Source: Pirellulales bacterium (GTDB lineage: Bacteria > Planctomycetota > Planctomycetia > Pirellulales > UBA1268). Taken from it: DNA of 51,421 nt. A model generated the notes under the pieces. It was not told the origin of the DNA, did no database searches, and was given only the letters and a program-made list of their open reading frames with translations. The position numbers and the translations under genes are program-made. Shown in pieces: positions 1-35,981 of the stretch. Each line of letters opens with the position of its first letter. Position 1 is the first letter of the stretch. The stretch spans positions 1 through 51,421 of the forward strand of contig JAUMAF010000151.1 of NCBI GenBank assembly GCA_032117045.1, in the 5' to 3' direction.

Positions 1-1
1 G

Positions 2-436
2 AACGACACGCTGGCCACGCATCGGATGCTCAGGTCGGGCTGGCTCGACACCGAGGACCTGGCCTCGACCGACGAAGATGGCTTCCTCTGGTTCGCGGGC
101 AGGCAGAAGGACATGATCTCGCGCGGAGGGTTTAAGGTGGCCCCGGCGATGGTGGAGGACGCGATCCTCTCGCATCCCGGCGTGGCGACCGCCGCGGTGG
201 TGGGGGCCTCGGATGAACGCGAGGGCCAGGTGCCCGTGGCGTTCTACGAACTCCGCCCAAGCGCCGTCGATCCCGGCGCGGAGGCCTTGGCCGCCTGGGC
301 CGCCGCCCGCCTGGAACCGCTTTCGGTGCCCGTCAGCTTTTTTCGCGTCGACCGCTGGCCACTCACAGCCCAGGGCAAACTCGACCGCGCTCGGTTGGTG
401 TGGATGGCCGACTTTGGCGACGGCCGGGAACTCTGA
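2..436 (+). CDS. AMP-binding enzyme / acyl-CoA synthetase, C-terminal part (5' truncated by window edge)
   Basis: GWLDTEDL, GRQKDMISRGG and WPLTAQGKLDR match adenylate-forming enzyme motifs A7/A8/A10; frame is open back to position 2. Confidence 0.9.
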   Translation, partial: NDTLATHRMLRSGWLDTEDLASTDEDGFLWFAGRQKDMISRGGFKVAPAMVEDAILSHPGVATAAVVGASDEREGQVPVAFYELRPSAVDPGAEALAAWAAARLEPLSVPVSFFRVDRWPLTAQGKLDRARLVWMADFGDGREL

Positions 437-466
437 GACAGGCGGCTTGTCGCAACCACGTGATCG
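387..466 (+). repeat. 80-bp direct repeat, copy 1 (last 16 codons and stop of the acyl-CoA synthetase gene plus 30 bp of 3' flank)
   Basis: gcgctcggttggtgtgg...gcaaccacgtgatcg; manual alignment to 5218-5297 gives 78/80 identity. Confidence 0.97.
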
Positions 467-578
467 GCTTCATGATCACCGTCGGCTTGACGGCTTCGGA
501 CCAGCAGGTGTGTCTACCAAGAGATTCGTCAGGGAGGGGAGCGGGCGGTCACGTGGACCAAGCCGCTGTCCGGCTCCC

Positions 579-2237
579 TCAATCCCTATGCCGCAGGTCG
601 ATGGCACCGAGGCTCGGAAAGCTGAAGAACTCCGCGGGACCCACTCCATGCCGCTCGGCGGCACGTTCGAGGTAGTCAAACTGTTCATCGGTGGGATCGC
701 CAACGACACACGATTGTGGATGGCGCTCGGCTGCCGACAGAATAATCTCTGCAAGGCACGTGAAGTTGACCTCATTGTCGCGATTCGCCGCGGTGAACAG
801 CCCCATCTCGAACGGACAATGGAGCCCTGGAATCCGGGTCAGGCACTTGACGACCCTCAGGTCTGGTCTGATGGCGAGCACGGACTGATCGACATTTTCC
901 GGCTGCGCATCGTCAAGGATCACGGTATTCATCCCAAAGTCGTCAGCCTCCAAAATGCCTCCGAGCGCATTGGTCACACAGACGACGATTGCCGCCTCCT
1001 TGATTTCCTTTTTGAGCGTCGTGAGCCGATGCACCGCCGGATTCCAGCCGGGAATCTCCGGGATCTTGCTCACTTGCTGCGGTAACTCGACCGCCAAAAC
1101 CCTCCGCAAGGGATTGCGCTTGAACATGCACCGCAGGGCCGCACGGCCCGTGGAGCCCGCCGCCCCCATCACGGCGACCACGCCATCAGCCCCGATTTCA
1201 TTCTCGATGTCCTCGACCATCTGTGCGATCGTCAGGGCCGTGAACCCATGGCCGGTGGTGATCGCCATGTTCGGCCTGGCCTGCTTAAGGAGCCTGCCCT
1301 GCCTCGAGATCGAAGGGATCAAGGCGCCGAGACTCACGAAGTGTGCCTGGCGATGTTCCGCGTAATCGAGAACGTGGATCAGGGAGTCCCTGGCGTCGGA
1401 GAGCCCTTCAAACATTTCTTGCGGGGCATACGGAATCGAAACCAACTCTCCTCGGAGCATGCGACCCCCGATCGGAACCTCGATGGAACCCAACACCGTG
1501 CACATCGGCTGGATGGTGGCAACAATATCCGCCGTCAGCCCTCGCATCAGCGGAAATGGCCGCCGCTTGTCGACGATCGCGCGGGGATGGATCACGTGCA
1601 TGAAGTCGAGCGGGCCGTCGTATTTCGGACGGAGCGATTCGATCGTGGTGACCAAGGCAGTCCGCTTCCAGCCACTCGCAAACACCACGGGCTGCTCAGG
1701 CTGAAGCGCCGCAGACCCCTTTCGATACCGCCGATTCCAGAAGGTCGTCTTTGCGAGGTCAATTTCCCACGACTTGCTGTGCAGCACCTCCGTGCCAAAC
1801 GTGACAGCCACGGTTGTGGCGATCGAAGAGGCATAGTCACGCTGCCAATGACCAACGTCACCGCTTTCCTCCGTGGCCCTCTTCACGGCCAGCGTGATGG
1901 AGACGGCAGCATTACTCTCGGTGAGCTCGCCGCCACACGCATCCTCAGGCAGAGCGTCTTCGAGCGGACGCGAGATGATGACTTCGCTCCGGTCCCAGCG
2001 TGCCACCATGCACTCGACAAACTCGTCTCGCTGAGACTCAAAATGAGCGCCCACCAGCGGCCGTAATGCCGATGCAAGCAGTTTGAGGTCGATCGCGTCG
2101 GCCAGATGGAGGAAGTCCATACGGCCGTAGATGCCTTCTCGAGATCCCTCTTGGCTTCTCTCGTCCGCGGGGCTCGCCGGGGATTGGTCTGTTGCTTTGA
2201 CAGCCTCGTGCATGGTTTTCGTTCTGATGGGGCACAT
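579..2237 (-). CDS. NAD(P)-dependent reductase of the acyl-ACP reductase / COG5322-like fold with an unassigned ~190-aa N-terminal domain
   Basis: VSLGAL, ITTGHGFTA, Rossmann VAVMGAAGSTG, ILDDAQPENV and FTCLAEIIL parallel cyanobacterial AAR motifs; GGAGGG RBS before ATG 2237. Confidence 0.7.
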   Translation of the reverse strand: MCPIRTKTMHEAVKATDQSPASPADERSQEGSREGIYGRMDFLHLADAIDLKLLASALRPLVGAHFESQRDEFVECMVARWDRSEVIISRPLEDALPEDACGGELTESNAAVSITLAVKRATEESGDVGHWQRDYASSIATTVAVTFGTEVLHSKSWEIDLAKTTFWNRRYRKGSAALQPEQPVVFASGWKRTALVTTIESLRPKYDGPLDFMHVIHPRAIVDKRRPFPLMRGLTADIVATIQPMCTVLGSIEVPIGGRMLRGELVSIPYAPQEMFEGLSDARDSLIHVLDYAEHRQAHFVSLGALIPSISRQGRLLKQARPNMAITTGHGFTALTIAQMVEDIENEIGADGVVAVMGAAGSTGRAALRCMFKRNPLRRVLAVELPQQVSKIPEIPGWNPAVHRLTTLKKEIKEAAIVVCVTNALGGILEADDFGMNTVILDDAQPENVDQSVLAIRPDLRVVKCLTRIPGLHCPFEMGLFTAANRDNEVNFTCLAEIILSAAERHPQSCVVGDPTDEQFDYLERAAERHGVGPAEFFSFPSLGAIDLRHRD

Positions 2238-2257
2238 CGATTACCCTCCAGAGTCGA

Positions 2258-4312
2258 TCAGTCCTTTCCCATCGCCTCGTAAGCAAATCTGGAGGCCTTT
2301 GCTTTGATCAACTTTTCGAGATAGGTGAGGAATTCGATTTTGACGGACGTGTTCTCCTCCGACATGGTGGCGAGGACGGCGAAGGCCATCTCGTCATCCG
2401 TGCCTTCACCAAGGAACACCGTCTTCTCCGGGCCGGGCGGACGTCGCGGATTCCCTGCTGAGTTGTCGAAGATTGCCTCCACATGCAGCGTGGAGCCCTT
2501 CTTCATCGGATACGGTTCCTTCGGCTGGTAGCGGTGCTGCCAGTTGAAGTCGTAGTCCTTGACCTCAAGCAACAGGATCCTCTCCGACGAGCCAACTGGC
2601 TGGTGCCAGACTCGAAACTCCTTGCCAAGCCGGTGCATGTGGGGAGAAATCAGCCACAGCAGACAGTCGTTCGCCACCTCGCGGGAGCCGGTGGTTTTGA
2701 AATGAGCGTCACCTTTCGGGATCAGCCTGAAATCAGTGTCGATCATGCCGCCCGTGGAATAGAGCCGGGGAGGCTTCTTGTCGAGCCAGATGCCGAGTCG
2801 GGTGGAATCATCGATCTCCGGCCGTCCTGTTCGGGTGTAGTGGATTTGGACGCCGATATCGGACTGCGGCGGAATCACCCGCCTGGCTTCGTGTGGGTAT
2901 TCAAGAGCCCCCACCCCGGGGACCCATCCCATGAAGTTGCCACCGGGGTTGTCTCGGTTCCGTATGACTTTCGTTGGGTCGGGGATGAAACCAAGCCCCA
3001 TCCCCGACTCGTATCCAGGCCCGTAGTCCTCATCGCCGGTGCCACGCGGGTGTGGTGTTCCCAGCCGTTTCTGGGCGTCGATCAGAAGGCCGGTGCCATC
3101 GTAGAAGGCCAGTGCATGGTGGATCGCCCGCCGGTTTCCTGGGAGGAACTCGGCCTTTTCGAGGTAGAGTTCCTGCTCGTTGCCCATGGGAAATACGATG
3201 GTGCGGTAGTGGTCCTCGCCCTGGGCGGCGAGATGAATGGCTTCCGGCACCGTGAACACGAGGTCTGGCGGACGGGAGTCGTGCCATTCGTCAGGGTCGT
3301 CGAAGACGAGCGGCGGGGGCGCGTCGGCCGGATTTCCTCGGGGGCAGCCTTCGTCCACCCAGCGGCCGATGAGTTCGATTTCCGCGGGCTTGAGGGCAAG
3401 GTCGTTTTTAAGAGGAAGCCCGCCGGTCACGGGCCAGGGAGGCATCAGTCGATCTGCGGTGTAGGTCTTGATGTCGGCCGCCCACTGCAACGCATGGTCG
3501 AACGATACGAGCGAGAATGGCGCCACGTCTCCGGGATGGTGGCATCGCTGGCAGTGCTGCTGGAGAAGCGGTTCGATATCGTGATGAAACTCGACGCTGC
3601 CGTGCTCAACAACCGGTCTGTCGGCGGGTTCCAGCGGGCAGCCGATCGGGGTCGTCTCCTTGAGCACGACGGCCCGACCAGCCACGATGGCGGAGATCGC
3701 ATCGGCGAGATAGGTGGCGTCGGCCTTCGGCTGGCGGACGAGCCGACTCGTGTACTGGTTGTCGATTGATCCGGAATACCGCAGCACCCGGTTCCGGTCG
3801 AGGAGAAACACCTGCGGCGTGACCGTCGCCAGAAAATGTGCCGCCGCACGTTTCTGGGGATCGAAAAACACCCGGCATGCGATGCCAGACTCGGCGATGT
3901 GACCATCCACCTCGGCTGCGTCGGCCGCGTCGCAGACCACCGCGATGAATGCCACCCCGTGATCGCCAAAGCGGGCAGCGAGGGTATTGATCACCGGCAC
4001 GCACTGATTCGAGATGGGACAGTTGAAATTAAGAAACGCTACGACGGTCGCCCGTCCGCCATCTGCCTCAGCCAACGACCACCGTGCCCCAGCCGTGTCA
4101 TGCAGATCGATCGGAGATACGACCCGCCCGATGCGGCTCCACGAGGCTGCAGCGATCGCTGCAGCCTCGTCGGGCTCGCCACCACGGGCCGTTCCGGCCA
4201 GCGAGATCACCAGGCTGGCCCCGAAGACCAAGGCCGCGAGCAGCACCGCCGCCATGGGAAAAAGCCGGCGCGGCGTGGAAACACTGGCGGGCGAACAGGG
4301 GGTTTTGCCCAT
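2258..4312 (-). CDS. Secreted redoxin (AhpC/TSA) + heme c + copper type II monooxygenase-like multidomain protein
   Basis: Signal/TM segment; NCPIS and TPQVFLLD...YSGSIDNQY redoxin motifs; CQRCH heme motif; HHAL, IHY, HMH and DEM copper ligands; start 4312 chosen for GAGGA RBS (track start 4330). Confidence 0.85.
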   Translation of the reverse strand: MGKTPCSPASVSTPRRLFPMAAVLLAALVFGASLVISLAGTARGGEPDEAAAIAAASWSRIGRVVSPIDLHDTAGARWSLAEADGGRATVVAFLNFNCPISNQCVPVINTLAARFGDHGVAFIAVVCDAADAAEVDGHIAESGIACRVFFDPQKRAAAHFLATVTPQVFLLDRNRVLRYSGSIDNQYTSRLVRQPKADATYLADAISAIVAGRAVVLKETTPIGCPLEPADRPVVEHGSVEFHHDIEPLLQQHCQRCHHPGDVAPFSLVSFDHALQWAADIKTYTADRLMPPWPVTGGLPLKNDLALKPAEIELIGRWVDEGCPRGNPADAPPPLVFDDPDEWHDSRPPDLVFTVPEAIHLAAQGEDHYRTIVFPMGNEQELYLEKAEFLPGNRRAIHHALAFYDGTGLLIDAQKRLGTPHPRGTGDEDYGPGYESGMGLGFIPDPTKVIRNRDNPGGNFMGWVPGVGALEYPHEARRVIPPQSDIGVQIHYTRTGRPEIDDSTRLGIWLDKKPPRLYSTGGMIDTDFRLIPKGDAHFKTTGSREVANDCLLWLISPHMHRLGKEFRVWHQPVGSSERILLLEVKDYDFNWQHRYQPKEPYPMKKGSTLHVEAIFDNSAGNPRRPPGPEKTVFLGEGTDDEMAFAVLATMSEENTSVKIEFLTYLEKLIKAKASRFAYEAMGKD

Positions 4313-4333
4313 GGTGTTCCTCATCAGCAACGC

Positions 4334-5101
4334 CTACTTCGCCACCTCCATGTGATACACAAACTTGAACGCACGTCCGAGCGGTCCGAGCCCCTCCGTG
4401 ACTGTGTCGACCCGCAACACGCTCAGCGTCAGGGGATCAAAGAGAAACTTGGCGGTCTTGCTGACCGTCTCGGAGTTCGGGATCAGCGGGTTTTTTTCCT
4501 GGTCACGATCAGAGCGAATCACCCAACAGTTGGTCCCGTTGTAGATCTCCGAGCCGATCACCTCGAGGTGGCAGGTGCCCGGCAACGAACTCGTCACTGG
4601 CTCGGAAAGCCATTTCGTGCCGACCTTCAGGCTCCCCGGGAAGATGTAGTGCTCGGTTTCGTGGTTGATTTCCTGAGGCTTTCCGTCGGTCCCCTGAATC
4701 GCGTCCAGCACGAGGCCCCGGTCCTCGTCTTGATGGAAGAGTTCGTACCTGACGGAATCTTCGAAGTCCTTCTTGAACTTGTTTCGCCCGGCGAAACTTG
4801 GCTTCGCGTCGTCGGCGTCGGAATGGATGGCATGGGTCTCGACCTTGAAGGCATGTTCTGCAGTCCCTTCCTTGCGCTCGACGATCGACCAGGTCTGTGT
4901 GAGCAGATCGTGCCCCGCGAGTTTGCCCTCGACGAAGTAGAGCACGTGCCCCGCATACTTGACCGGTTCGTGGTCGTGCACCAGTCCGATCTGATTCGAT
5001 GGCTGCCCCATGCCCGAAGGCTCTTCGGCCCCGATCAGCTCACCAGCCGCAATCAACCCTGCCGACGCGACGACCAACCCAAGCCAGCGATGCAAGACCA
5101 T
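4334..5101 (-). CDS. Hypothetical secreted protein (255 aa)
   Basis: N-terminal hydrophobic signal peptide, coding-like codon usage, co-oriented and adjacent to the redoxin gene. Confidence 0.75.
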   Translation of the reverse strand: MVLHRWLGLVVASAGLIAAGELIGAEEPSGMGQPSNQIGLVHDHEPVKYAGHVLYFVEGKLAGHDLLTQTWSIVERKEGTAEHAFKVETHAIHSDADDAKPSFAGRNKFKKDFEDSVRYELFHQDEDRGLVLDAIQGTDGKPQEINHETEHYIFPGSLKVGTKWLSEPVTSSLPGTCHLEVIGSEIYNGTNCWVIRSDRDQEKNPLIPNSETVSKTAKFLFDPLTLSVLRVDTVTEGLGPLGRAFKFVYHMEVAK

Positions 5102-5217
5102 GAACCTGTCTCCACGAGAGTAATGGCGAACGTTTCTAGGAATTTATAGATCTAGCAGAATGGCTTCTTTCTTGCCTCCTCAGCAGAATCTGTGCGTTAA
5201 TCCCAGCTGTGCAATAG

Positions 5218-5297
5218 GCGCTCGGTTGGTGTGGATGGTCGACTTCGGCGACGGCCGGGAACTCTGAGACAGGCGGCTTGTCGCAACCACGTGATCG
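5218..5297 (+). repeat. 80-bp direct repeat, copy 2 (orphan 3' end of the acyl-CoA synthetase gene, encodes ...LVWMVDFGDGREL*)
   Basis: 78/80 identical to 387-466; ends 7 bp before the hydrolase ATG. Confidence 0.97.
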
Positions 5298-5304
5298 CCT
5301 GCCA

Positions 5305-6069
5305 ATGAGAACCCGCCGCATGCTCTGGACCCTGCTCACGATCGCAATCGGCGGCTACGCCGGGCTTTGCCTCGTCTTCTTCGTTTTTCAGCGGTCATTC
5401 ATCTACATGCCGACCCCGGTGACGCACGCCCACGCGGCGGCGTTTACGCTCGAGGTGCCCGGTGCCACGGTGCGGGTTTCTACGAGGGCTCATGACGGCC
5501 CCAAGGCCCTGCTGTTTTTCGGAGGCAACGCGGAGGACGTGGCCTACACGGTGCCGGAACTGGCTGAAGTGTTTCCGGATCGGGCCATCTACGGCATGCA
5601 CTACCGCGGCTACAGCGGCAGTTCCGGCCACCCTTCGGAAACAGCGCTGCGGAGCGACGCCCGAGCCCTCTTCACTCTCGTTCATGCCCGCCATCCAGAC
5701 GTGATCGTCGTGGGCCGCAGCCTCGGCAGCAGTCTCGCGATCCAACTGGCGGCCGAGGAGCCCGTCTCACGGCTCGTCCTGATCACGCCTTTCGAGAGTA
5801 TCCTTTCGATCGCAAAGCGGACGGCCCCCTTCCTGCCAATGAGCCTTCTGCTTCACGACAGGTACGAGTCGTGGCGATACGCCCCCCGCGTGAACTGCCC
5901 CACGCTCCTGATCGCCGCCTCTCACGACGAACTCGTGCCGCTCGCCGACACGCAGAGGCTCATCGCAGGCTTCCCACCCAACGTGGCCGCGCTGCGGGTG
6001 ATCGAGGGCACTGACCACAACTCGGTGTCAGGCGAGGCTGAATTCTGGGAGGTGATGACCAACCCGTAG
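5305..6069 (+). CDS. Membrane-anchored alpha/beta hydrolase (ABHD/Bem46-like)
   Basis: N-terminal TM, FFGGNAE, YRGYSGSSG, nucleophile GRSLG, DELVP, DHN. Confidence 0.9.
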   Translation: MRTRRMLWTLLTIAIGGYAGLCLVFFVFQRSFIYMPTPVTHAHAAAFTLEVPGATVRVSTRAHDGPKALLFFGGNAEDVAYTVPELAEVFPDRAIYGMHYRGYSGSSGHPSETALRSDARALFTLVHARHPDVIVVGRSLGSSLAIQLAAEEPVSRLVLITPFESILSIAKRTAPFLPMSLLLHDRYESWRYAPRVNCPTLLIAASHDELVPLADTQRLIAGFPPNVAALRVIEGTDHNSVSGEAEFWEVMTNP

Positions 6070-6092
6070 ATTCCGCGCCGGGGGCCGCAGGC

Positions 6093-6530
6093 TCAGAACT
6101 CTTTCGCGGCGTCTTGAACGGCCTTTCGCACATCGTCCCACGCAGCCTGCGCACCCTTCTCCATGTGCCCCCACGCCTCGCCAGTGGATTTGCGAACCTC
6201 GTCCAACTTGTCGCGGGCTGCCTGCTGCTTGGCCTCGAGGTCAGCCATCTTCTCTTTCCAGCGGGCCTTGGCCGCATCCTTCAGGGCGTGGCCTTTTTCA
6301 TGAAGCCTTTCAATTTCCTTCTCCATCTCTGCGAGGCTGGCCTTGAGGCGCATCTCAAAATCTTCCTTTGCCTGTGCGGCAGCGTGTGCGGAGGTGTCGA
6401 CAGCCTGCTCCGCGTCGCGACGGACATCCTCGGTCGTGACTTTCCGCACCGTGTGCTCGACCGGTGCCTCCATGCAGCCATTGCAGGTCACAAGAACCGC
6501 TGCACTGAGCAGCCACCAGGAACGAGGCAT
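6093..6530 (-). CDS. Small coiled-coil probable lipoprotein (sll1863-like stress protein)
   Basis: Lipobox-like VTCNGC, amphipathic helices, AW..M.KG..AAWDDV C-terminus, GAGGTG RBS. Confidence 0.75.
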   Translation of the reverse strand: MPRSWWLLSAAVLVTCNGCMEAPVEHTVRKVTTEDVRRDAEQAVDTSAHAAAQAKEDFEMRLKASLAEMEKEIERLHEKGHALKDAAKARWKEKMADLEAKQQAARDKLDEVRKSTGEAWGHMEKGAQAAWDDVRKAVQDAAKEF

Positions 6531-6930
6531 GGGCTCACCTCATGGAGGACGACGACGATGGATTCCGTGCGAGTCGCATTCGAATGGACCCGCTCACAGC
6601 AGCCGGCATGATGCAGACGAAAGGATAGCGACGACCTCGCTGAAACCACGATGCGCGCTTCCCAGTGCGGATTTGAGACGAGCGGCATGCCGGACACTTC
6701 CTTCACATCGCGGCGAAAAAGCGCCGAAAGGTTCTGCACCCGGCCGCATTCGGTGAACTGCGGATAGTGTCTCCCGGCAGCGAAATGTGTCCCATCCGGT
6801 AGATTCCGGAAAACAAGCATCTCCACGACGCTCTTCGTCGCTCCAGCGCCCAGCGCTGCTAACGTTGCCTTGACCGATTCGGTTCATCCGTTGAACCGAC
6901 GGCTTTTTTTCTTTGAGAGGTACCTGACCC

Positions 6931-7473
6931 ATGAAGAGTTTCCTGTTGACATGTGCCCTTGCGACGGTGGCACTGCTTGGGGTCAGCATGGCTGCGACCG
7001 ATGCGTATGCGGAACCCGGCAGCGAGCGAGCTGCCGGCACTCCGGGAGCGACGAAAGACGTCGTTGTAACTGCAGTGGAGGCCGGCCACTTCAAGACGCT
7101 TGTCAAAGCTCTCGAAGCAGCCGGCCTTGTCGAGACCCTGAAGGGCAAGGGCCCCTTCACCGTGTTTGCGCCCTCTGACGAGGCGTTTGCGAAACTGCCT
7201 TCGGGGACCGTGGAAAACCTGCTCAAGCCGGAAAACAAGGAGAAGCTGAAGGCGATTCTGTTGATGCACGTAGTACCCGAGGATCTCCTCATCGCTGATG
7301 TGAAGAAGATCAAGGACGCCAAGACGGCCGGCGGGGCCAAGCTCGACGTGACGCATCATCTCCTGACTGGTGTGCACATCGGCACCGCCAAGGAGATGGC
7401 TCATGTCCAGAACTCGGACATCCACGCCTCCAATGGCGTGATTCACGTCATCGACAAGGTGATCCTGCCGTAG
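6931..7473 (+). CDS. Fasciclin (FAS1) domain protein
   Basis: Signal peptide; [17 protein letters not shown] (H1) and [15 protein letters not shown] (H2) motifs. Confidence 0.95.
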
Positions 7474-7514
7474 AGTCCGACCGTCCCAGCCTCGCACGGC
7501 AAAAGCACAAAACA

Positions 7515-7552
7515 CGTGCCCTGCGCGACAGGATTCCGTCGCGCAGGGCACG
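7515..7552. terminator. Perfect 15-bp GC-rich hairpin downstream of the fasciclin gene
   Basis: cgtgccctgcgcgac / gtcgcgcagggcacg, loop aggattcc; A-tract on the left side gives a U-tract on the minus strand. Confidence 0.65.
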
Positions 7553-7670
7553 GGTGAGCGGAGGCGAGAGTCAGACCGCTGCTCTGCTCGTCAGGGCCGG
7601 AAGAGTTTCCGAATGTTTGGGGAAGGACTCCGTGAGGGCATTTCTAATCTTCTTGACTAAGGAGTGAACT

Positions 7671-7838
7671 GTGAGTCCGATCGTAACGATCCTTGTCGTG
7701 ATTTTGATCCTGTCGCTGCTGGGCGGCGGCTACGGTTTCCGGAGCGGCAACACCGTTCTGGGCGCGGGAGGCGGAATCGTTGGTCTGATCCTGCTGATCC
7801 TGCTGATCCTTGCCTTGCTGGGGCGTCTACCGTTGTGA
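7671..7838 (+). CDS. 55-aa two-TM small membrane protein, DUF3309-like (absent from the ORF track)
   Basis: AAGGAG RBS then GTG; translates to MSPIVTILVVILILSLLGGGYGFRSGNTVLGAGGGIVGLILLILLILALLGRLPL. Confidence 0.85.
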   Translation: MSPIVTILVVILILSLLGGGYGFRSGNTVLGAGGGIVGLILLILLILALLGRLPL

Positions 7839-7864
7839 ACGGCCCTGTGCATCTGCGGGGCCGT
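7839..7864. terminator. Hairpin between convergent genes
   Basis: acggccctg / cggggccgt stem directly after the small ORF stop. Confidence 0.45.
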
Positions 7865-7921
7865 CTACTTCGTATTTTCGGGAGTCGTGACGACCACCCG
7901 TCGGTAGCCGGCGGATGATCC

Positions 7922-8374
7922 TCATGTGATCATCGCCTTGCAGGCATCGTGGCACTTCCTGCAGGTCGCGGCACATGCCTGGCAGCAGGGCTCGGCGCCG
8001 CATGCGCGAGTCGAGTTCGTGCAGTGGCGATCACGCGCGAAGACGAACACCTCTTCGCCTGTGACTGTGCTGATGTCGTGGTGCATGCTGACGCATGCCA
8101 ACTCGGTCGCCTGCTCCACGAGTGCGTCGATCCGCAGGCGGGATGCCTCCAGCATGTAGGTGCGGACGCTTTTGAGCATATCGCGGCCTTTTTCAGTGGG
8201 CTGCACCGCGGCGAGGCTCACTTCCGCCGGCGTGAGAATGCCCTGCTGGCGGACGAGCAGCAGGTTGCCGAAGAGGTGCGTGCGGATCTCCTTGGGACCG
8301 CGGCCCATGAAGTCCTGCATGAAACGAGCGATGCCCTCACAGACGGCCGCCTCGACTTCGCCCCTGGTTTTCAT
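7922..8374 (-). CDS. DUF2294 (MpsC family) protein with an atypical Cys-rich C-terminal tail
   Basis: MKTRGEVEAAV...MGRGPK...GILTPAE...SMHHDISTVTGEEVFVF is the DUF2294 pattern; start moved to ATG 8374. Confidence 0.85.
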   Translation of the reverse strand: MKTRGEVEAAVCEGIARFMQDFMGRGPKEIRTHLFGNLLLVRQQGILTPAEVSLAAVQPTEKGRDMLKSVRTYMLEASRLRIDALVEQATELACVSMHHDISTVTGEEVFVFARDRHCTNSTRACGAEPCCQACAATCRKCHDACKAMIT

Positions 8375-8502
8375 GCTGCATTCGTCCCTTGAGGCCGCAC
8401 AAGTCCGGCGGCAGAATGCCGCGTTCGCTTCGTCTATGATCGTTGGAGAGTCGCCGCACCACATCAGCCCAGCAGACCTCGCGCATCCCAGGAGCACCGA
8501 CC

Positions 8503-8913
8503 ATGGCCGCATTGAGACCGGAGTTTTCCGAGAAACTCGCCGAGATCGCCCTGGCAATGCAGGCGGAGCGGACGGGCCACTCTCCGAAGGCAGTCACCGT
8601 GGTCGCCAGCGACGAGACCGTCGTCGTCACGATGCACGAAGCCCTCACGCCTGCGGAAAAGATCCTGGCACGGAGCGCCGCGGGTGCTTCAAAGGTCGAG
8701 GACTATCACCGGGCGCTGTTCGCCGTGTCGTGCGAGGAACTGCGGCTGGAGATCCAGCGGCTTTCGGGGCGAAAGGTCCGGGAGGCGGCCGTGGTGCTCG
8801 AACCGGCGACCGGTGCGATCGTGCACGCGTTCACCAGCGGCACCGTTGTGCAGATTTTCCAACTCGAGTCGCATAAAGCGGCCCGCGAGAGGACCGGCGA
8901 AGGGCCACGCTGA
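8503..8913 (+). CDS. DUF2294 (MpsC family) protein, second divergent copy
   Basis: TGHSPKAVTV...ALTPAEK...EIQRLSGRKV...TSGTVVQIF; AGGAG RBS before ATG 8503. Confidence 0.8.
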   Translation: MAALRPEFSEKLAEIALAMQAERTGHSPKAVTVVASDETVVVTMHEALTPAEKILARSAAGASKVEDYHRALFAVSCEELRLEIQRLSGRKVREAAVVLEPATGAIVHAFTSGTVVQIFQLESHKAARERTGEGPR

Positions 8914-9025
8914 TCATCCCGGCCAACCCCGCCACCATCATGGCGACACCGCTCGGCTCGGTCATCGACACGGTGAGCCGTACGACCGGGCCCGACCGCG
9001 GCCCGCATTCCAGAAGGATTCCCCC

Positions 9026-9600
9026 ATGAAACGCTTTTTTGTCATCGACGCCGCATCGTTCGTGATGCTTGCCTGAGCGACTACATCGGCCCGCAGACGC
9101 TCACGATCGCCTACGAGGTGGCCATCTCGTCGAGTGAGGTGTTTCAGTCGGTATCGCTCGACCAGGATTTCTCCGGGGCATCGGCGACCACCTACACGGA
9201 CATGTTCGCGAGTCTCGAGGATCTCCAGGCGAACCCGACGCCCGGCAGCGGAACCTGGGCGCTGTCGGTGATCGATTCGGGAGCCGGCACCACCATCGCC
9301 CTGCCCCCGATCCAGACGCTCTGGATCCGGGGCACGATCGTACTTGGCGCCAGTGGGTCGGTGCTCTCGATCTCCAACACGATCGTGCAGGTGCCCGAGC
9401 CCGCGGCGGCCAGCCTGGCGGGCTGCGGCATGCTGCTGGCAGGGGCGGCGTGGCGCCGCAGGAAGAGATGGACGGCGGGAGACCGACCTTCGACAAACCC
9501 GTTCGGACTTGAGCGACGAGCGGATGAGTCGAAACGAAACCATACGGCGACAAGGACCCGCGATACGATATTGCTTGCATGTGAGTCCCGCATCGGATAG
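9026..9600 (+). pseudogene. Disrupted PEP-CTERM surface protein gene
   Basis: RBS plus signal-like MKRFFVIDAASFVMLA stops at 9076; the body with VPEP-TM-RRRKR is in another frame and runs ~40 codons past the basic cluster. Confidence 0.6.
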
Positions 9601-9829
9601 GGTGGGGAATTGCTCTTCGTGTGGGGAATGCAGCGAGCCGTGTTCTGGAGGAACATCCCGAACGTGCTCGGTCTGCGATCCGCTGGATCGATCGCTGATC
9701 CATGGTGCGTCGCGACCCGTCGGTCGCGATGAAGTGCTGCCGGCCGCTCTGGCCGGCATGTTCGCAAACGAGTGGCTGTTGCCGGCCCCACTGGCCTGCG
9801 GTCCAGCCATCCCCCCAGGGAGGTGATCG

Positions 9830-11047
9830 ATGGAAGCCACCGTGCGTCCGCTGTTTGTCTCGACCTATCCGCCGGAAGCGTGCGGTCTGGCCACGTTCAC
9901 CAAGGACTCCGCCGATGCGGTCGATCTGGCCGCCGGCCGGCCCGTCTCCGCGGTGGCCGCCATCGAGCGGCTCGCCACGATCCCACCCTGCGATCCGCGG
10001 GTCACCCACGTCATCAACAACCGTCGCCCCGACGCCTACCGGTTCGCCGCCGAAGTGGCCAACGAGGGGCCTTGCGATGTCGTGAGCCTGCAGCATGAGT
10101 TCGGGCTCTATCCGGGGGAGTGGGGCGGCCGCATCCTCGATTTCGTGCAGGCCTGTAGGAAGCCGATCGTGACCACATTCCACACGCTCCTGCCTCGGCC
10201 TGAGCCGGTGCCACGGATGCTGGTTCGGCAACTGGCGGCGCACAGCCGCCGCGTCGTCGTGATGACGCGGATCGCGGCCCGGTTGCTGCGCGACGACTAC
10301 GGCGTGGAGCCTGGCCGGGTGCGGATCATCCCCCACGGCGTGCCTCCGGTGCCGTTTGGCCGCGACGAATCGCTCAAGGGGCGCTTCGGCCTCGCCGGCC
10401 GCCGCGTGATCTGCACATTCGGCCTGATCAATCGCGGCAAGGGGCTCGAACACATGATTCGCGGCATGCCGGCGGTGGTCGCGGCCTGCCCGGAAGCGGT
10501 GTATCTGGTCGTCGGCGCCACGCATCCGCAAGTGAAGCTCCACGAGGGCGAGGTCTACCGCGAGGGGCTGGCGGAACTGGCCCGGTCGCTGGGCATGGAG
10601 GAGCACGTGCGATTCGTGAACCGCTACCTGAGCCTGCCCGATCTGCTCGCCCACCTGCAGGCCTGCGACGTCTTCGTCACGCCCTATCCCGGGAAAGACC
10701 AGATCGCCAGCGGAACAATGGCCTACGCCATGGCCGTCGTCGGCGCCGTCATCAGCACTCCCTATCTCTACGCCCGGGAGATGCTGGCGGGCGGCCGGGG
10801 GATTCTCGTGCCGTTCTCCGACAGCGACAGTCTGGCCCGCGCGGCCAGCCTGCTGCTCACCGACGACAACCTCCGACGGCGGACCCAGCGCAGGGCGTAC
10901 CGCCACGTGCGACCGATGTTCTGGCCCAACGTGGGCCGCCTCTATCACGAACTCTTGAGCAGGGTCGCCGCGGAGCACCGCCGGGCCGGGCTGCGGGAAT
11001 CAAGGGCCGAAGACCTCGGCCTCGCCCTCCAGGGAGACGCCCGATGA
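9830..11047 (+). CDS. GT4 family glycosyltransferase
   Basis: [48 protein letters not shown] motifs; GGAGGT RBS. Confidence 0.92.
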
Positions 11048-12141
11048 TTGACGCCGCACAGGTTCCCCTCATCCATCTGGATCGGATGACCGATTCGACC
11101 GGCCTGATCCAGCATGCGATCTACGGCATTCCGCGCCGCGAAAGCGGCTACACGACCGACGACAACGCCCGCGCCCTGCGGCTCTGCACCAGGCTCTGGA
11201 GCCACCATCCGGACGACCGCATGCTGACGCGGGTGTCGTGCTACCTGAGTTTTCTCGAATACGCGCGCTGTCGGGAGAAAAGTTTTCACAACTTCCTCAG
11301 CTACCAACGGCATTGGCTCGACACCGCCGGCACCGGCGATTGCCAGGGGCAGGCGGTGCTCGCGCTGGCCGAGGTGCTCGGCAGCCGGCTCCCGGAAGGC
11401 TACCGGTCGGTGGCCTGGGAGCTGATCAAGACGGTCCTCCCCACGCTCGCCGAGCTTCGCAGCCTGCGGGCGCAGGCCTACGTGATCATGGCCTGGTCGC
11501 ATCTCTGGAAAGCCGACATCGCGCAGGCCCGAGGGCTGCAGGCCGTCGCGCACCGCGCCGCGCTGCGGCTCACCGAGGCCTACGAGCGATCGCGCCGGCC
11601 CGACTGGCCGTGGTTCGAATCGCGGATGACCTACGCCAACGCCGTGCTTCCGCACAGCCTGTTCGCTGCGGCCGAGCGCTGGCCGAACGGGCCGTTCCTC
11701 ACCGTTGCCGAGGATACGTTCGGCTTCCTCGTCCGCGAGACGACGACCGATGGGGTCTTCTGGCCGGTGGGCAACGCCGACTGGTACGCGCGGGGCGAGA
11801 CGAAGTCCCCCTACGACCAGCAACCGGTGGAGGCCTCGACGATGGCCGAGGCGGCACTGGCCGCATTCACCGCTCGGCCAGACGGCGGCCATCTGGTGAC
11901 GTTCCTGCGTGCGCACTGCTGGTTCGGGGGTCGCAACAGCCTGGGACTCCCCCTGGTCGATCCGGTCACCGGAGGCTGCTGCGACGGCCTGCAGCGTGGC
12001 GGCCTCAACCACAATCAAGGTGCGGAGTCGACGCTCGCATCGCTGTGGACGCAGTGGCTCGGCACCACGACCCGACAACTCGACGACAGGGCGACGCGAT
12101 CGCTCCCGAATCTCTCACCCCAGGAGCCCAGCGTCGCATGA
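11044..12141 (+). CDS. GT4-associated (alpha/alpha)-barrel glycosidase-like protein
   Basis: [52 protein letters not shown]; ATGA overlap with the GT4 gene. Confidence 0.85.
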
Positions 12142-13133
12142 CTCCTCTCATCAAGCCGCAGCATTACCCCGAACTGTTCCGCCGCCACGAGGGCAATCCG
12201 ATCCTCACGGCCAATGACTGGCCCTATCCGGTCCACACCGTCTTCAACGCGGGAGCCTGCCAGATGGGCCCCAACACGCTGCTGCTGGTGCGGGTCGAGG
12301 ACCGTCGCGGCCATTCCCATCTCAGCGTGGCCCGCAGCGACGACGGCATCTCCAACTGGCGGATCGACCCCCAGCCCACCTTTGCGCCCGATCCGGTGAA
12401 CTATGCCGAAGAGGCCTGGGGCGTGGAGGACGCCCGCGTCACCTGGGTCGCCGATCGCCAGGAGTGGATCATCGCCTACACCGCCTTCTCTCCAATCGGC
12501 CCGCTCGTCTCCCTGGCCTCCACCGTCGATTTCCAGTCGTTCATCCGCCTCGGGCCGGTGATGCCCCCCGAGGACAAAGACGCCGCCATTTTTCCGCGGC
12601 AGTTCGGTGGCCGCTACGCGATGATCCATCGGCCGGTGTCGGCGGGAAGCTCCGGCGCCCACATCTGGCTCTCGTTTTCGCCCGACCTGCGGCACTGGGG
12701 TGATCATCACGTGCTGCTGCACGCCCGCCGCGGGGCGTGGTGGGATGCCAACAAGATCGGCCTCAGCCCCACGCCCCTGGAGACACCGGAAGGCTGGCTG
12801 CTGCTCTACCACGGCGTGCGGCACACCCCCGGTGGCTGCCTCTACCGGCTCGGCCTGGCGCTGCTCGACCTGGAGCAGCCGTGGCGGGTGCTACGCCGCA
12901 GCGACGACTGGATCTTCGCCCCGGAAATGCCCTACGAGCGGCAGGGCGACGTCAACGGCGTGGTCTTTCCATGCGGCTGGATCCTCGACGAGGCCACCGG
13001 CATGATCCGGATGTACTACGGCGGCGCCGATTCCTGCCTGGCCTTGGCCACGGGCCGGCTGTCCGACGTGCTCGACTACCTCCGCGAGTGTCCGGCGCCC
13101 GCGGCCAGGGCGCGTCCAGGCATGGCGGTCTGA
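12138..13133 (+). CDS. GH130 family glycoside hydrolase/phosphorylase
   Basis: VFNAGA, GVEDARVT, EDKDAAIFP, HRP, GWLLLYHGV, VVFPCG, YYGGAD; ATG 12138 overlaps the upstream stop. Confidence 0.92.
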   Translation: MTPLIKPQHYPELFRRHEGNPILTANDWPYPVHTVFNAGACQMGPNTLLLVRVEDRRGHSHLSVARSDDGISNWRIDPQPTFAPDPVNYAEEAWGVEDARVTWVADRQEWIIAYTAFSPIGPLVSLASTVDFQSFIRLGPVMPPEDKDAAIFPRQFGGRYAMIHRPVSAGSSGAHIWLSFSPDLRHWGDHHVLLHARRGAWWDANKIGLSPTPLETPEGWLLLYHGVRHTPGGCLYRLGLALLDLEQPWRVLRRSDDWIFAPEMPYERQGDVNGVVFPCGWILDEATGMIRMYYGGADSCLALATGRLSDVLDYLRECPAPAARARPGMAV

Positions 13134-17423: not shown

Positions 17424-17574
17424 CGGGCACGAACTCAGCGAGGGGCTGCCCGTGCCTCGGAGCCGGCGTATGACGCCAAGCGCAGGCAGGATGCCGAAGC
17501 GCCGGCGGCATCCGAGTGAGTGAAGCCCAGGATGGGCGCAACGAACGTCCGGCTCTCGGGGCATGGGCAGGCCC
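17424..17574 (+). repeat. Structured intergenic repeat element, copy 1 (complete)
   Basis: 17424-17539 matches 51306-51421 at 112/116; long imperfect closing stem 17442-17466 / 17549-17574. Confidence 0.93.
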
Positions 17575-17592
17575 GAGCCGCCCACCAGGACA

Positions 17593-17640
17593 GCCCGCGG
17601 CCTCACGGCCGGTCGGCTTGTGCCGGAGCCCGCGGCCTAC
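17593..17640. repeat. Short REP-like palindromic repeat (gcccgcggcctNacggccggtcggcYtg), ~1.5 units
   Basis: Similar units at 51277-51303 and, inverted, at 43382-43413. Confidence 0.65.
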
Positions 17641-22045: not shown

Positions 22046-25000
22046 TCAGATCGTGGCAAAGATGTTCTTTTTTCGGGGGGTCGGCTGCTGGTCGAGGGCC
22101 ATCACTGCAAAAGCGGCGTCCAGTGGCGAGAGAGGGGCGATCGCCGCAGAGGACGCCACGGGAGCGAGGCCGGCCGGGAGATACGAGCCTGCGTTATACA
22201 GGCCCGCGGTCATGAAATCCGCCACGTCACGGATGTCCGTAACCCCGTCGTACGTGAAGTCGCCGGTCGACCATGTCGCCGTTGACCCCGTATTGAACTT
22301 CCCGCCGGCGATGAAGCCGGCGGCGTCGAGGACGTCGGTCTGGCCGTCGAGATTCGTGTCGCCCGGTGCGGCGAATCCCACGCTGATCGAGCCATCGCCA
22401 TGGTCGTACCAGCCAATCGCCCGCCGGTCGCCCAGCGTGATTGCCCCGGCGACGGCCGCCGAGACGATGCCCGACGCGCCATCCCACGCCCCGCCATTCC
22501 GCCCTGCGGCGAGCAGGGCGACGAGATCCGCAGCCACGAGACCACCGGCCACGCGAATCCGTCCGAAACCGATCTCGACGATTGCCCCCGGCTCGACCAC
22601 GAGCGACGCCATGTCGATCTCTTCGATACCCACGTCGAGCGTCAGCCTCGCGCCGGCCTTCACCAGGATCGCTCCGCTCCCGAGTGCAGCCACGTTTTTC
22701 ACCACCACCTCGCCGACTTCGACCGATGTGCCTGCGGTGTGGCTGTTGGCCAGCGTGAGGATCAGTGTGCCCGAGCCCTTCTTGATGATCCGGTCGTTGC
22801 CGGAGCGGGGCGTCGAGTCGACGACCGTGGCGAGCGCCGGCACGGTGAGTTCGACCGGCGTGTAGACGGGCACGGCGATGACTGAGCCGAGTTTGAGGGC
22901 GAGGCCGACGTTCGGTGTCTGGCCGGCGTTCACCTGGGCGACCAGCGTCGGCGTGGCGTTGTCGTAGCGAAGCGTGTTGGCCCCGCCGCCGCCATCGAGC
23001 GTGCCCGGGAACGTGACCGAGGGCGACGTCATCACGAACGTGTCGTCGTTCGAGCCCCCGATCACTGCCTCGATCGCCGTGCCGGCATGCGTGGCCGAGG
23101 CCCCCGGCGCCGTCACCGTCACGCTGCCGAGACTGACGGTGAGCGCGGAGGTGACCAGCGCGAAGTCCATCGTGTCGGAGCCCTCGCCGGCGATCTCGAT
23201 GATCGTGTCGGTGCCGAAGAGGTCGGCGAACGAATAGGTGTCGTTTCCGGGGCCGCCCGCGAGCGTGTCGCTGCCCCAGCCGCCCAAGAGCATGTCGTCG
23301 CCGTACCCGCCGGAGATCGAGTCGCCACCGTTGTTGCCCTCCAGCCGATCCCAGCCGACGCCTCCCGTGAGCGAGTCGCCGCCGTCTCCACCCTCGAACC
23401 AGACCGGCAGTCCGCCGGCGGTGAGCGTGTCGTTCTTCGTGCCGCCGATCACGTGGCGGAGGCCGCGGACGCTCGCAGTGCCCGTCGCCGTGCCGAGGAA
23501 CGTGAAGTCGAGGGCGCCGAGGTAGCTCACCGTCACCGCCGAGGTCCACGCCGAGTAATCGAGCGTGTCGAAGTCGGTGAAGTCGTAGCCCGGGTTGGCG
23601 TAGCCATCGAGCCGCCCGCCGAAGGCCGCGCCGTCGGCGAGCCGGAAGACGTCGGCCTGCCCCGTGCCCATCACCATGTCGATGCCCGCCGCGGTGGCGA
23701 CGGTCACCCGGTTGGTGCCAAACGTGACGTCGATCGAGCCGCCGATCGCCGCGTCGATGCCCCCCGGGCCGGTCACCTGGCTGAAGTCGAGCGTGTCGCT
23801 TCCTTGCCCCGCGGCCTCGGTGACTGTGTCGGTTTGGGCCGCTGCCGAGCGGAAGAAATAGTAGATGTCGTCGCCCAGACCGCCGGCGAGCGTGTCGGAT
23901 CCGTCGCCGCCGTAGATCGAATCATCGCCGCCACGGCCGGTGAGGATGTCGTTCCCGGCACCACCCGAGAGCAGATTAGCGGCCGCGTTGCCTGAGAGCG
24001 TGTCGCCGCCGTTGCCGCCGTACACGTTCTCAAACGCGGTCGCGCCGGCCAGGCCGCTCGCCGTGCCGGCGGCAAGATCGACCGTCACGCCGGCCGTCCA
24101 GGCCGCCCAGCGGTAGGGCTCGCCGGCGTACGAGAGCGTGTCCGTGCCCGTGCCGCCGTCGATCGTGGCGGCGAGCGCGGAGCCCTCGCGGATCGAGACC
24201 ACGTCGTTGCCGCTGCCGAACAGGATCGACTCAATCGTGTTGGCGTAGTAGGAGGCGCCGACGTAGGCCCCAACGTCGGAGTCGTAGCCGCTGATGGAGT
24301 ACGAGTTCGTCGGATCCACGAGCATCTGCAGCCCCGCGGTGACGGCGGTGAAGTCGAGCGTGTCGCTGCCGGCCCCGGCCACCTCGATCACGGTATCGCT
24401 GAAGACACCTGAGAACACGTAATTGTCGGCACCCGTTCCTCCCTCGAGCCGGTTGGAGCCCGCGCCGCCCACGAGGTGATCGTTGCCCGCGTCACCCCGC
24501 AGCGTGTCACCGCCCGCCTCGCCGTACAGGAAGTCGTTGTCGCCGTTGCCGCCGATCGTGTCGCCACCGTCGCCGCCCCAGATGCGGTCGACTCCGGTGC
24601 CGCCGAGCAGGATGTCGTCGTTGCCGAGGCCGCGGATCGCCGTCGAGCCGCTGAAGACCGAGGCGTCGATCCGGTTCTTGCCGCTGCCGCCGGTGAGCAG
24701 GCCGATCTCGACCGTGGCGACGGTGCTCACGCGGCCGGACACCGTCACGACGATATTCGTGAGCAGCGAGTCGACGTCGGCGTTCACCACGATGGTGTCG
24801 CCGTCCGTGCCGCCGTCGTAGATGTCCGCCCCGGTGCCCGCCGGGTCGGCCGCATATTCCCCGCCGCTGGTCACGTCGATCACGAACAGCGTGTCGGATC
24901 CGGCGTCGCCATACACCCGATCGGTGCCCGCTCCGCCCACGAGCGTGTCGCCGCCGTCGCCGCCGAAGAGCGTGTCGTCGCCCGTCCCACCAAAGATGAG

Positions 25001-35578: not shown

Positions 35579-35981
35579 AGTTCCTCCCTGGACGAGGCCT
35601 GTACAAAGCCTGTGCAAGGCGGTCGCCCCCGGCGACACCCTGCGGTCTGTCATGAAACGGTGCCAGCGTGTGGCGGCCCGCCGACGCCCACGAAGCAGGC
35701 AGAATATCCGGGCGTTTACCCGGCGAGCAACCGGCGGGCAATGCCGCTGCCCGAGCCACTTTTTCGCACGTCACTCTTCGAGAAGTCTCACGTCACGCGT
35801 TTCGATGTATTTGCTGCATCGATCGGCACTTCCCCCTTGAGGAAGGCTGGCGAAGCCGGGGAGTTTCGGGATCTCCGGCAGATGCTTGCCGCTGGGCACC
35901 GCGACCGCCTGAGGCGATAGACTCGATTCCCGTTCCAGGCCAACAGCGCCGTCGGATCGTCACACTCCAGGAGTCGTTGCC

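Follow-up and report, generated by a model that had tools for sequence, protein, structure and literature searches.

Gene content of the locus

The window, that is, the whole stretch of 51,421 nucleotides analysed here, comes from a Pirellulales assembly (G000), a fragmented MAG of 3.29 Mb that is 87% complete. The contig starts inside the gene of an acyl-CoA ligase, which in relatives has 512 amino acids; a full-length relative matched NCBIfam long-chain-fatty-acid--CoA ligase models below their cut-offs. Behind the 3' end of this gene, an insert of 4,731 bp (487-5217), which is less than 20 kb, is enclosed by a direct repeat. The features of the locus are:

2..436, plus strand: accessory class I acyl-CoA ligase gene, 3' part (PF13193, E=9e-18)
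387..486, plus strand: left copy of the duplicated target, with 16 ligase codons and the stop, a spacer of about 15 bp, and the nitroreductase remnant
452..486, plus strand: remnant from the 3' interior of a nitroreductase gene (aligns within intact genes of this kind at 86-91%)
487..517, minus strand: stub of an acyltransferase gene, about 10 codons (compared with the paralogous operon G000:C255 and the donor-like allele L258)
579..2237, minus strand: gene 3, 552 aa, with an N-terminal alpha/beta domain and an acyl-ACP-reductase/PigE-N/TAD-like thioester reductase domain
2258..4312, minus strand: gene 2, about 684 aa, with a redoxin domain, a CxxCH motif, and a weak C-terminal match to copper monooxygenase
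4334..5101, minus strand: gene 1, 255 aa, with a hydrophobic N-terminus and a beta-rich model
5102..5173, no strand: leader of gene 1, rich in AT (41.7% GC) and present in G075 with no IS end
5174..5217, minus strand: decayed ISL3 right end, with the last transposase codons and the terminal repeat
5218..5297, plus strand: right copy of the duplicated target, shortened on comparison with the G009 alleles
5305..6069, plus strand: alpha/beta hydrolase gene, ATG at 5305 (PF00561)
6093..6530, minus strand: sll1863-family gene (NF052504), a recurrent neighbour of this variable region across the genus

The three minus-strand genes that the first-pass annotation had placed between the repeats are present. 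Gene 3 looks like an uncharacterised acyl-ACP-reductase-like fusion protein and putative thioester reductase, with an invariant Cys494 that aligns to Cys294 of cyanobacterial AAR. Gene 2 matches the profiles PF00578 and PF08534 above the cut-off and PF03712 below it. The product of gene 1 is likely exported, judging from its hydrophobic N-terminus; it has no Pfam or NCBIfam match, and its model (pLDDT 81) bears a weak likeness to lipid-binding barrels, with best TM-scores of 0.40-0.46 and rmsd of 8-13. The cargo is likely a piece of a lipid-modifying operon, in the intact form of which the acyltransferase gene comes after gene 3.

Both ends of the insert are fragments, which the first-pass annotation had missed: the 5' stub of the acyltransferase gene on the left and the ISL3 right end on the right. 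At the left junction there is a microhomology of 3 exact bp (6 of 8) with the close donor-like allele L258. The ISL3 end, clear over 5174-5208 and less clear over 5209-5217, matches the end of a PF01610 element on another contig (G000:C203) and copies in other genomes; its outer end points toward the cargo and its inner side is cut against the right repeat. The segments 452-486 and 5160-5211 were considered as recombination sites of a cassette and rejected, being the nitroreductase remnant and the ISL3 end. Apart from this remnant of 35-44 bp at the right edge, the insert holds no mobility gene, and no restriction or modification family was matched in it. There was no Rfam match and no sigma-70-like promoter, terminator-like sites numbered 2 against 3.4 expected, and the share of sequence words found in RNA runs did not exceed 0.17.

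The stretch 5102-5217, first described as AT-rich, has 45.7% GC, while the 53-57% first given for the interval has to be corrected to 60.7% (57.5-63.2% in sub-segments). This value ranks within the bottom 0.8% of 1108 windows across the genome, but the region to the right of the hydrolase (6093-9100) has 61.6% GC and, therefore, the step is not ended by the right repeat.

The direct repeat and its alleles

The segments 387-466 and 5218-5297 are identical at 78 of 80 positions, with mismatches at 408 and 415, and span the last 16 codons and stop of the ligase (AMP-binding_C) gene plus 30 bp of flank, as first described. Their exact run reaches 51 nt, whereas 50 shufflings of the bases of 1-12000 yielded exact repeats of 18 nt at most. 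The assembly contains only two copies of the 80-mer and one other, weak match (58 bp, 74-76%), and so this is not a dispersed repeat. No tRNA or Rfam match was found for the repeat. As a separate observation, 438-467 matches, over 30 bp and at 93%, the terminal part of an ATP-grasp gene in G018, which may explain the spacer.

The filled allele occurs in two of the 68 genomes of the genus. In the relative (G009) it is 94.6% identical over 1-5300 and the repeat measures 100 bp against 80 bp in the window, both above 30 bp; the stretch common to the two copies is 387-486 in G009 and 387-466 in the window. Sequence comparison indicates that the duplicated stretch originally had about 100 bp (387-486), comprising the ligase 3' end and the nitroreductase remnant, and that the right copy was cut to 80 bp by a later 115-bp deletion, which, judged against the filled and empty alleles of G009, fell between short look-alike stretches. 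The shortened right copy is also present in the public runs X4 and X5. The left copy keeps the ligase frame, its difference being synonymous, while the right copy has a missense change. Among 16 aligned copies, the G000 left-copy variants 443C, 454A, and 478A are otherwise seen in right copies only, and the signal of sequence exchange between the copies consists of these three sites.

The search for an empty site suggested by the first-pass annotation returned single-copy alleles in G009:C339, which reaches the hydrolase, and in G044:C2 and G085:C1, which reach into the nitroreductase remnant. It had been expected that removal of one copy plus the interval would join the ligase to the hydrolase; this order is found, but with a nitroreductase 3' remnant between the two, which makes the real empty allele 115 bp longer than the window minus one copy. 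The hydrolase is the usual partner of nitroreductase, and intact pairs occur in G000:C285 and G003:C365. The G009 empty allele was rejected as a fresh excision product, its hydrolase being 91.7% identical to that of the filled allele, and a joint of 481 to 5305 in run X2, considered as an empty site, is most likely an intact nitroreductase-hydrolase pair. Comparison of these alleles shows the duplication, the empty allele, the ragged ends, and the later trimming of the right copy.

An assembly artefact, i.e., a chimera or a duplicated overlap, is hardly credible. The source is a fragmented MAG, both junctions are never found within a single record of the public runs, and on G000:C254 a repeat of 103 bp next to a stretch of N is such an artefact. 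Nonetheless, the repeat copies of the window differ at two positions with no N nearby, and both junctions are supported outside this assembly: the same arrangement is found in a second species (G009), the left junction is bridged in X1, X4, and X5, the right one in X2, X4, and X5 (these runs come from two studies, and X1 is possibly the source), and the right junction also in the independent metagenome contig L116. This contig is too short to reach the left junction.

Origin of the insertion

The ligase is an accessory gene, with copies that are 91-98% identical in nine of the 68 genomes; its tree gives no resolution. Among 31 ligase-bearing loci of 32 metagenome matches, about 15 different continuations (counted by eye) lie downstream of it, several of them breaking at 481-489. 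Joins like the left junction are, in this sense, frequent behind the ligase.

In integrative and mobilisable elements with attL and attR at gene 3' ends, the upstream gene regains its 3' end through the duplication; some phages have long identity blocks at such ends. The locus shares this restoration, and a remnant of a site-specific element that used the ligase 3' end, and was either mobilised in trans or deprived of its integrase by deletion, would agree with the left copy keeping the ligase frame by a synonymous difference while the right copy is missense. Matches to three tyrosine and two serine recombinases exist elsewhere in G000. However, there is no integrase in the insert or beside it, as first observed, and a query made up of the three G000 tyrosine recombinases alone gave no match in 45 ligase-linked sequences (326 kb). 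None of the 32 metagenome loci (many contigs being short) shows the pattern a second time, there is no tRNA or Rfam match, and the target, present in nine of the 68 genomes only, is followed by scattered breakpoints and its many continuations with a single duplicated lineage. The elements named above differ further in that the window has an accessory target, no fixed element ends, and a site not reused by other duplicated inserts. The direct repeat is probably not an att pair, and such an origin is very unlikely. The earlier idea of a chosen metabolic-gene target whose att-like sites served in trans is not supported either: the target is accessory, a pseudogene scrap lies within the duplication, breaks downstream of the ligase are scattered, and the ends of this cargo are different at every locus.

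The three-gene block occurs at three unrelated loci in other genomes, 85-95% identical, and its ends in window-equivalent positions are 487-5217, 594-5137, 484-5145, and 545-5014. In G084 the cargo has its own 39-bp duplication of a gene end, which we take to be that of a DUF1080-like gene; no matching empty site was found for this repeat in G056 and G047, which lack the whole gene too. The resemblance noted earlier between a lipid-related cargo and its target is borne out by the acyl-ACP-reductase-like protein, but the link looks incidental and a functional tie is not evident, given that in three genomes ligase and cargo are both present at separate loci.

Similar two-copy repeats are common in the genus. 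In G044, 15 two-copy repeats were counted in 1.73 of about 4.0 Mb, surveyed from an island-rich contig, and the two pairs that were checked have empty sites. Verified empty sites belong to two other loci, with 99 bp around 21.9 kb and 101 bp around 1.3 kb. A fixed signature of about 100 bp, suggested by three validated cases of 99-101 bp, was rejected on the survey lengths of 48-270 bp (21 unique pairs), a breadth that implies no fixed stagger. A 102-bp pair in G082 resolved into no simple insertion, and the 103-bp pair on G000:C254 was set aside as a scaffold artefact.

A transposase may have been involved. In ISCR-like capture, a circle is made by a transposase and then integrated by homologous recombination, and an IS91-family rolling-circle or an ISL3 transposase acting in trans could have made a cargo circle rescued in this way. 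G000 has Y2_Tnp matches at seven places and ISL3 matches at three, and remnants of the IS91 family are found on the flanks of the ligase module (G044 and L090), next to the same cargo (L261), next to a fragment of gene 1 (G021), and next to the right copy of the 99-bp case. Against this, IS91 sequence is absent from the window, the insert has no transposase gene, the ISL3 terminal repeat faces the cargo rather than a junction, none of the 25 longest inverted pairs, out of 66, forms terminal inverted repeats at the insert ends, and IS remnants may merely accumulate in variable regions. This origin is considered unlikely. Long duplications are made by IS1634/IS1549-type elements, but the insert, with no outward terminal inverted repeats seen among those pairs and no transposase gene, differs from these and from an ISL3 composite transposon.

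A single event is a possible, though doubtful, origin: at a break or stalled fork, synthesis would have switched at 486 onto the cargo by way of a short microhomology and, after copying 4.7 kb, resumed on the target some 100 bases behind the point where it had left. Both junctions and the duplication would then arise at once and with the fewest events, in line with the little or no homology at both junctions and the one-junction intermediates that were not found. The same anatomy at the 99-bp and 101-bp loci and the 39-bp repeat of the same cargo in G084 point the same way, and double-strand breakage is proposed as the cause of restriction-modification (RM) cases in an earlier report (PMC2853133). 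On the other hand, two template switches are needed in one event, the cargo lacks a nuclease for making the break, joins of the left type are already frequent at this site without any duplication, and the survey lengths are broad.

The explanation we favour, with a probability of about 0.5, is a stepwise one, in which the host's repair machinery and recombination by RecA brought an operon fragment to this site without a dedicated recombinase. An ISL3 would first have entered the gene 1 leader, and the operon piece would have been joined, at a microhomology, directly to the nitroreductase remnant that follows the ligase 3' end. Next, another illegitimate join would have connected the interior of the ISL3 with ligase position 387, leaving repeat and cargo either duplicated in tandem or on a circle. 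From this product, a single crossover by RecA with an empty allele of the order ligase-nitroreductase-hydrolase would produce the repeat-cargo-repeat arrangement with ligase and hydrolase intact. Afterwards, sequence exchange between the two copies is likely, as is movement of the unit between backgrounds via homologous recombination, and the cargo could still be lost via crossover within the remaining 80 bp. G075 has the pre-IS leader allele, the right junction lies inside the ISL3 end, and recA is present in G000, while Ku had no match in this 87% complete assembly. A length of 80-100 bp is short for a RecA crossover, and a single-junction intermediate was not found, the cargo being at none of the 31 ligase-bearing metagenome loci. 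No circle junction was seen in the public runs, the contigs of which end inside the repeat. The end product of the stepwise route is identical to that of the single event. The single crossover of a circle put forward in the first-pass annotation is plausible and is retained here, but not its att-like use in trans.

Significance and comparison with known systems

The locus is a real but fairly ordinary insertion, probably made by host repair and recombination and not by a self-mobile element. It matches the known structural pattern called insertion with long target duplication, reportedly described by Nobusato et al. in 2000, here without RM genes, and represents this mechanistically unexplained pattern outside its usual setting. 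It is a well-resolved example, with empty, donor-like, and pre-IS alleles and later trimming. Where genes are densely packed, an insert that lands directly after a stop codon and duplicates about 100 bp will carry the gene end within its repeat, and a duplicated gene 3' end that looks like an att site is therefore no certain sign of an integrative element.

Tentatively, freshwater Pirellulales may routinely transfer accessory blocks between species without a recombinase, duplicating about 40-270 bp of any site, although we consider so general a route rather doubtful. If true, it would be an insertion route of Pirellulales possibly fed by IS91-family circles, used by the same three-gene block at two gene ends and leaving a dozen islets in one genome; insertion with long target duplication would be freed from RM cargo, with a mechanism testable by population long-read sequencing. 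Unusually many structural variants are described for Planctomycetota in a lake survey (PMC9426551). Among the matches listed in literature searches not aimed at the pairing of this insertion pattern with planctomycetes, none dealt with this locus or with that pairing.

In Furuta, Abe & Kobayashi 2010 (PMC2853133), RM units are inserted with long target duplication. The window shares with this class an insert below 20 kb, unique repeats above 30 bp and of variable length, a single empty target in a relative, and no integrase, and some of the published repeats overlap a gene 3' end, as here. It differs from the set presented there in a cargo without RM genes, found at several targets and ending in gene fragments, one of them a decayed ISL3, and in its host, a freshwater planctomycete.

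Single-crossover insertion-duplication with spontaneous excision is described for the planctomycete Planctopirus limnophila with about 1300 bp of homology (PMC11958385). The repeat-insert-repeat structure produced by host recombination and reversible by crossover is shared with this Campbell-type case, which was engineered, whereas the window has 80-100 bp and a circle that is only inferred. The H47 island of E. coli (PMC3191183, PMC5426353) is likewise a small recombinase-free block between long imperfect direct repeats, with hybrid repeat copies and empty sites among relatives. Its excision and integration were demonstrated by PCR, also without RecA, while the window is known from sequence; and H47 is a whole functional system, whereas the insert described here is a truncated operon at an accessory gene.

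The duplicated gene end and its insert

It is clear that the insertion is real and well resolved. Its parts are as follows.

387-466: left repeat copy, terminating an acyl-CoA ligase frame (PF13193)
487-5217: insert of 4,731 bp, both ends cut within other genes
579-2237, minus strand: gene 3, reductase-like
2258-4312, minus strand: gene 2, redoxin domain
4334-5101, minus strand: gene 1, beta-rich
5174-5217: decayed ISL3 end
5218-5297: right repeat copy, before an alpha/beta hydrolase gene

The repeat copies are 78/80 identical, as first described, and differ at 408 and 415. The longest exact repeat is 51 nt at the locus versus 18 nt in 50 shuffles (first 12 kb), which excludes a chance origin. 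A dispersed 80-mer, the objection foreseen by the first-pass annotation, is ruled out, since the whole G000 assembly of the studied genome (3.29 Mb, 295 contigs, 87% complete) holds two copies only. The private change of the left copy is synonymous, that of the right copy missense. The interval has a GC content of 60.7% versus 67.1% for the genome, within the lowest 0.8% of 1108 windows; the 53-57% initially estimated was wrong, and the low GC extends beyond the hydrolase, with 6093-9100 equally low (61.6%). Elsewhere in the window, a repeat of about 200 bp (17424-17638 and 51278-51479) is dispersed on dozens of contigs, often at their ends, and 22046-35653 (minus strand) is an open frame of 4,535 codons.

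Another species in the genus shares the arrangement (G009:C164, 94.6% over 1-5300). Among public sequencing runs, X1, X4 and X5 have contigs that cross the left junction, and X2, X4 and X5 have contigs that cross the right one; these runs belong to two studies, and X1 may be the source sample. The right junction is also present in one of 32 metagenome loci (L116). Each junction thus recurs, although no single record spans both, and misassembly is hardly credible. Runs that contain at least half of the stretch come from metagenomes of fresh water or drinking water, and the closest cargo relatives are in records titled Planctomycetota or Pirellulales. The predicted empty site with one repeat copy was found in G009:C339, where the ligase end leads through the repeat and a nitroreductase remnant to the hydrolase; in G044:C2 and G085:C1 the ligase is likewise followed by the remnant, after which the sequences diverge.

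The G009 duplication spans 100 bp (387-486). Its 3' portion (452-486) comes from the interior of a nitroreductase gene, the usual upstream partner of the hydrolase, and the duplicated target is therefore a ligase end plus a scrap of pseudogene. In G000, two short, similar sequences bound a 115-bp deletion that took the rest of the remnant and trimmed the right copy to 80 bp. In G044:C2 (about 205200-208260) the ligase and a divergent MFS transporter lie between a 5' and a 3' piece of one nitroreductase gene, which makes the two genes themselves the product of an insertion or replacement.

Cargo and target in related genomes

The three cargo genes are part of a longer operon running on into an acyltransferase gene, of which the left insert end keeps only about 10 codons. 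Comparison with the close allele L258 shows that the acyltransferase was joined to the nitroreductase remnant at 3 identical bases (6/8 matching). A second copy of the three-gene operon, about 75% identical, lies on C170 and C255 of G000, two contigs whose ends overlap; there the acyltransferase is intact and a desaturase-like gene is present. The longer operon is also seen in G016. At the right end, the ISL3 piece matches a PF01610 element on C203 of G000; the terminal repeat of this piece points toward the cargo, and the inner side, where the element is broken, abuts the right repeat. G075 retains this gene 1 leader free of the IS, a pre-IS allele. Gene 2 contains a perfect 30-bp palindrome (4141-4170), also present in G009.

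The C-terminal domain of gene 3 resembles acyl-ACP reductase (AAR), the PigE N-terminus and carmabin TAD (profile E 1e-12 to 1e-15; Foldseek TM by target 0.65-0.77), with its invariant Cys494 aligned to AAR Cys294 and family scores all far below cut-off. Gene 2 adds a weak copper monooxygenase match to its redoxin domain, and gene 1 resembles lipid-binding barrels only weakly (TM 0.40-0.46). Given reductase-like gene 3 and the desaturase-like and acyltransferase genes of the intact operon (labels read from sequence), a lipid-related cargo, as first proposed, is a reasonable prediction; there is no sign of joint work with the ligase.

Nothing sets the insertion target apart. Copies of the ligase with 91-98% identity are present in 9/68 genus genomes, beside varying neighbours, and by our own count the 31 ligase-bearing loci among the 32 metagenome hits show about 15 distinct continuations, with breakpoints from the stop codon to the remnant end, several at 481-489. 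None of these 31 loci has the cargo or a second copy of the repeat pattern, many contigs being short. In L070 (G042:C110), just beyond 9477, the ligase ends near an opposite-strand tRNA-like gene (by eye).

Nor is the cargo tied to this target. In G084, G085 and G086 the block (95, 85 and 86% identical) and the ligase are on different contigs, and the block ends at window-equivalent positions 594-5137, 484-5145 and 545-5014, respectively. In G084 (L259, G084:C38) it stands behind another gene's 3' end, of which 39 bp are repeated (85%) on the two sides of the block; an empty site for this repeat was sought and not found. In G086 an IS91-type end, recognised by likeness to Y2_Tnp-linked sequence, adjoins the block.

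The first-pass view of an att-like integrative element is not supported by these results: the target is accessory, the ends are variable and no integrase was found in or beside the insert. The locus lacks the features expected of an att-bounded element and those of a transposon, and an att pair is quite improbable. The insert encodes no recombinase or transposase, and the three G000 tyrosine recombinases used as queries had no match in 45 ligase-linked sequences (326 kb). A transposase acting in trans is a weaker explanation, and an unlikely one.

Route of insertion

We infer the route itself, and favour a stepwise one at a probability of about one half. A microhomology join would first set an operon piece behind the ligase, a spot where such joins are frequent. 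A second join, from inside ISL3 back to 387, would give a tandem duplication or circle, and a single RecA crossover with the empty allele would yield the present form. recA is present in G000, with two full-length matches (C132 and C88) in this one genome; Ku was searched for in the same 87% complete assembly and not found. In planctomycetes, single-crossover insertion and spontaneous excision are reported, with much longer homology (PMC11958385). Against the stepwise route, no one-junction intermediate was found; no circle junction was seen, in a test without power to show one. A one-step template switch would leave the same end product and is a possible, less probable alternative; both routes are discussed in PMC3457768.

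Three left-copy variants of G000 are otherwise confined to right copies (16 aligned copies), and its hydrolase start region is closer to the empty allele than to other filled alleles. Together these few sites suggest later sequence exchange, on which neither the identities across the whole hydrolase (91-92%) nor the ligase tree gives a clear answer.

Similar insertions in the genus and known systems

Repeat pairs of this kind are frequent in the genus. When unique direct repeats with two copies (40-400 bp, at least 90% identity) were surveyed, 1.73 Mb of G044 yielded 15 out of 105 candidate pairs and G000 another 6, a total of 21 with lengths of 48-270 bp; by eye these include four tRNA ends, one N-adjacent artefact and some tandem gene copies. 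Empty sites were found for both G044:C2 cases checked. The first is a 99-bp duplication (98%; 174581-174679 / 196560-196658) around a 21.9-kb insert full of IS91-family remnants, empty in G070:C153 and with its left junction common to G057:C192. The second is a 101-bp duplication (92%; 166883-166983 / 168312-168412) in which the 3' end of a sigma-factor-like gene is repeated on either side of a 1.3-kb insert, with an empty site in G011:C374 at 66-80% identity.

A third candidate, a 102-bp pair from G082, failed to resolve as a simple insertion. G082:C3 (about 56900-85200) has a 195-bp gene-end duplication around 28 kb, with an IS91-like end directly after the left copy. The 103-bp gene-end repeat of G000:C254 (10359-10461 / 12634-12736), beside a run of N, is a scaffolding artefact. 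Small integrase-less islets between 48-66-bp repeats were seen at G000 C93 7137-8245, C83 11257-12235 and C148 5665-7102; they hold toxin-antitoxin-like gene pairs (labels read from sequence), and two of the islets lie at tRNA 3' ends.

The locus belongs to a known kind of insertion, the insertion with long target duplication. The pattern is mentioned for 'other DNAs' as well in PMC3457768, and the H47 island (PMC3191183, PMC5426353) has a similar anatomy; of the two, mobility is demonstrated for H47 only.
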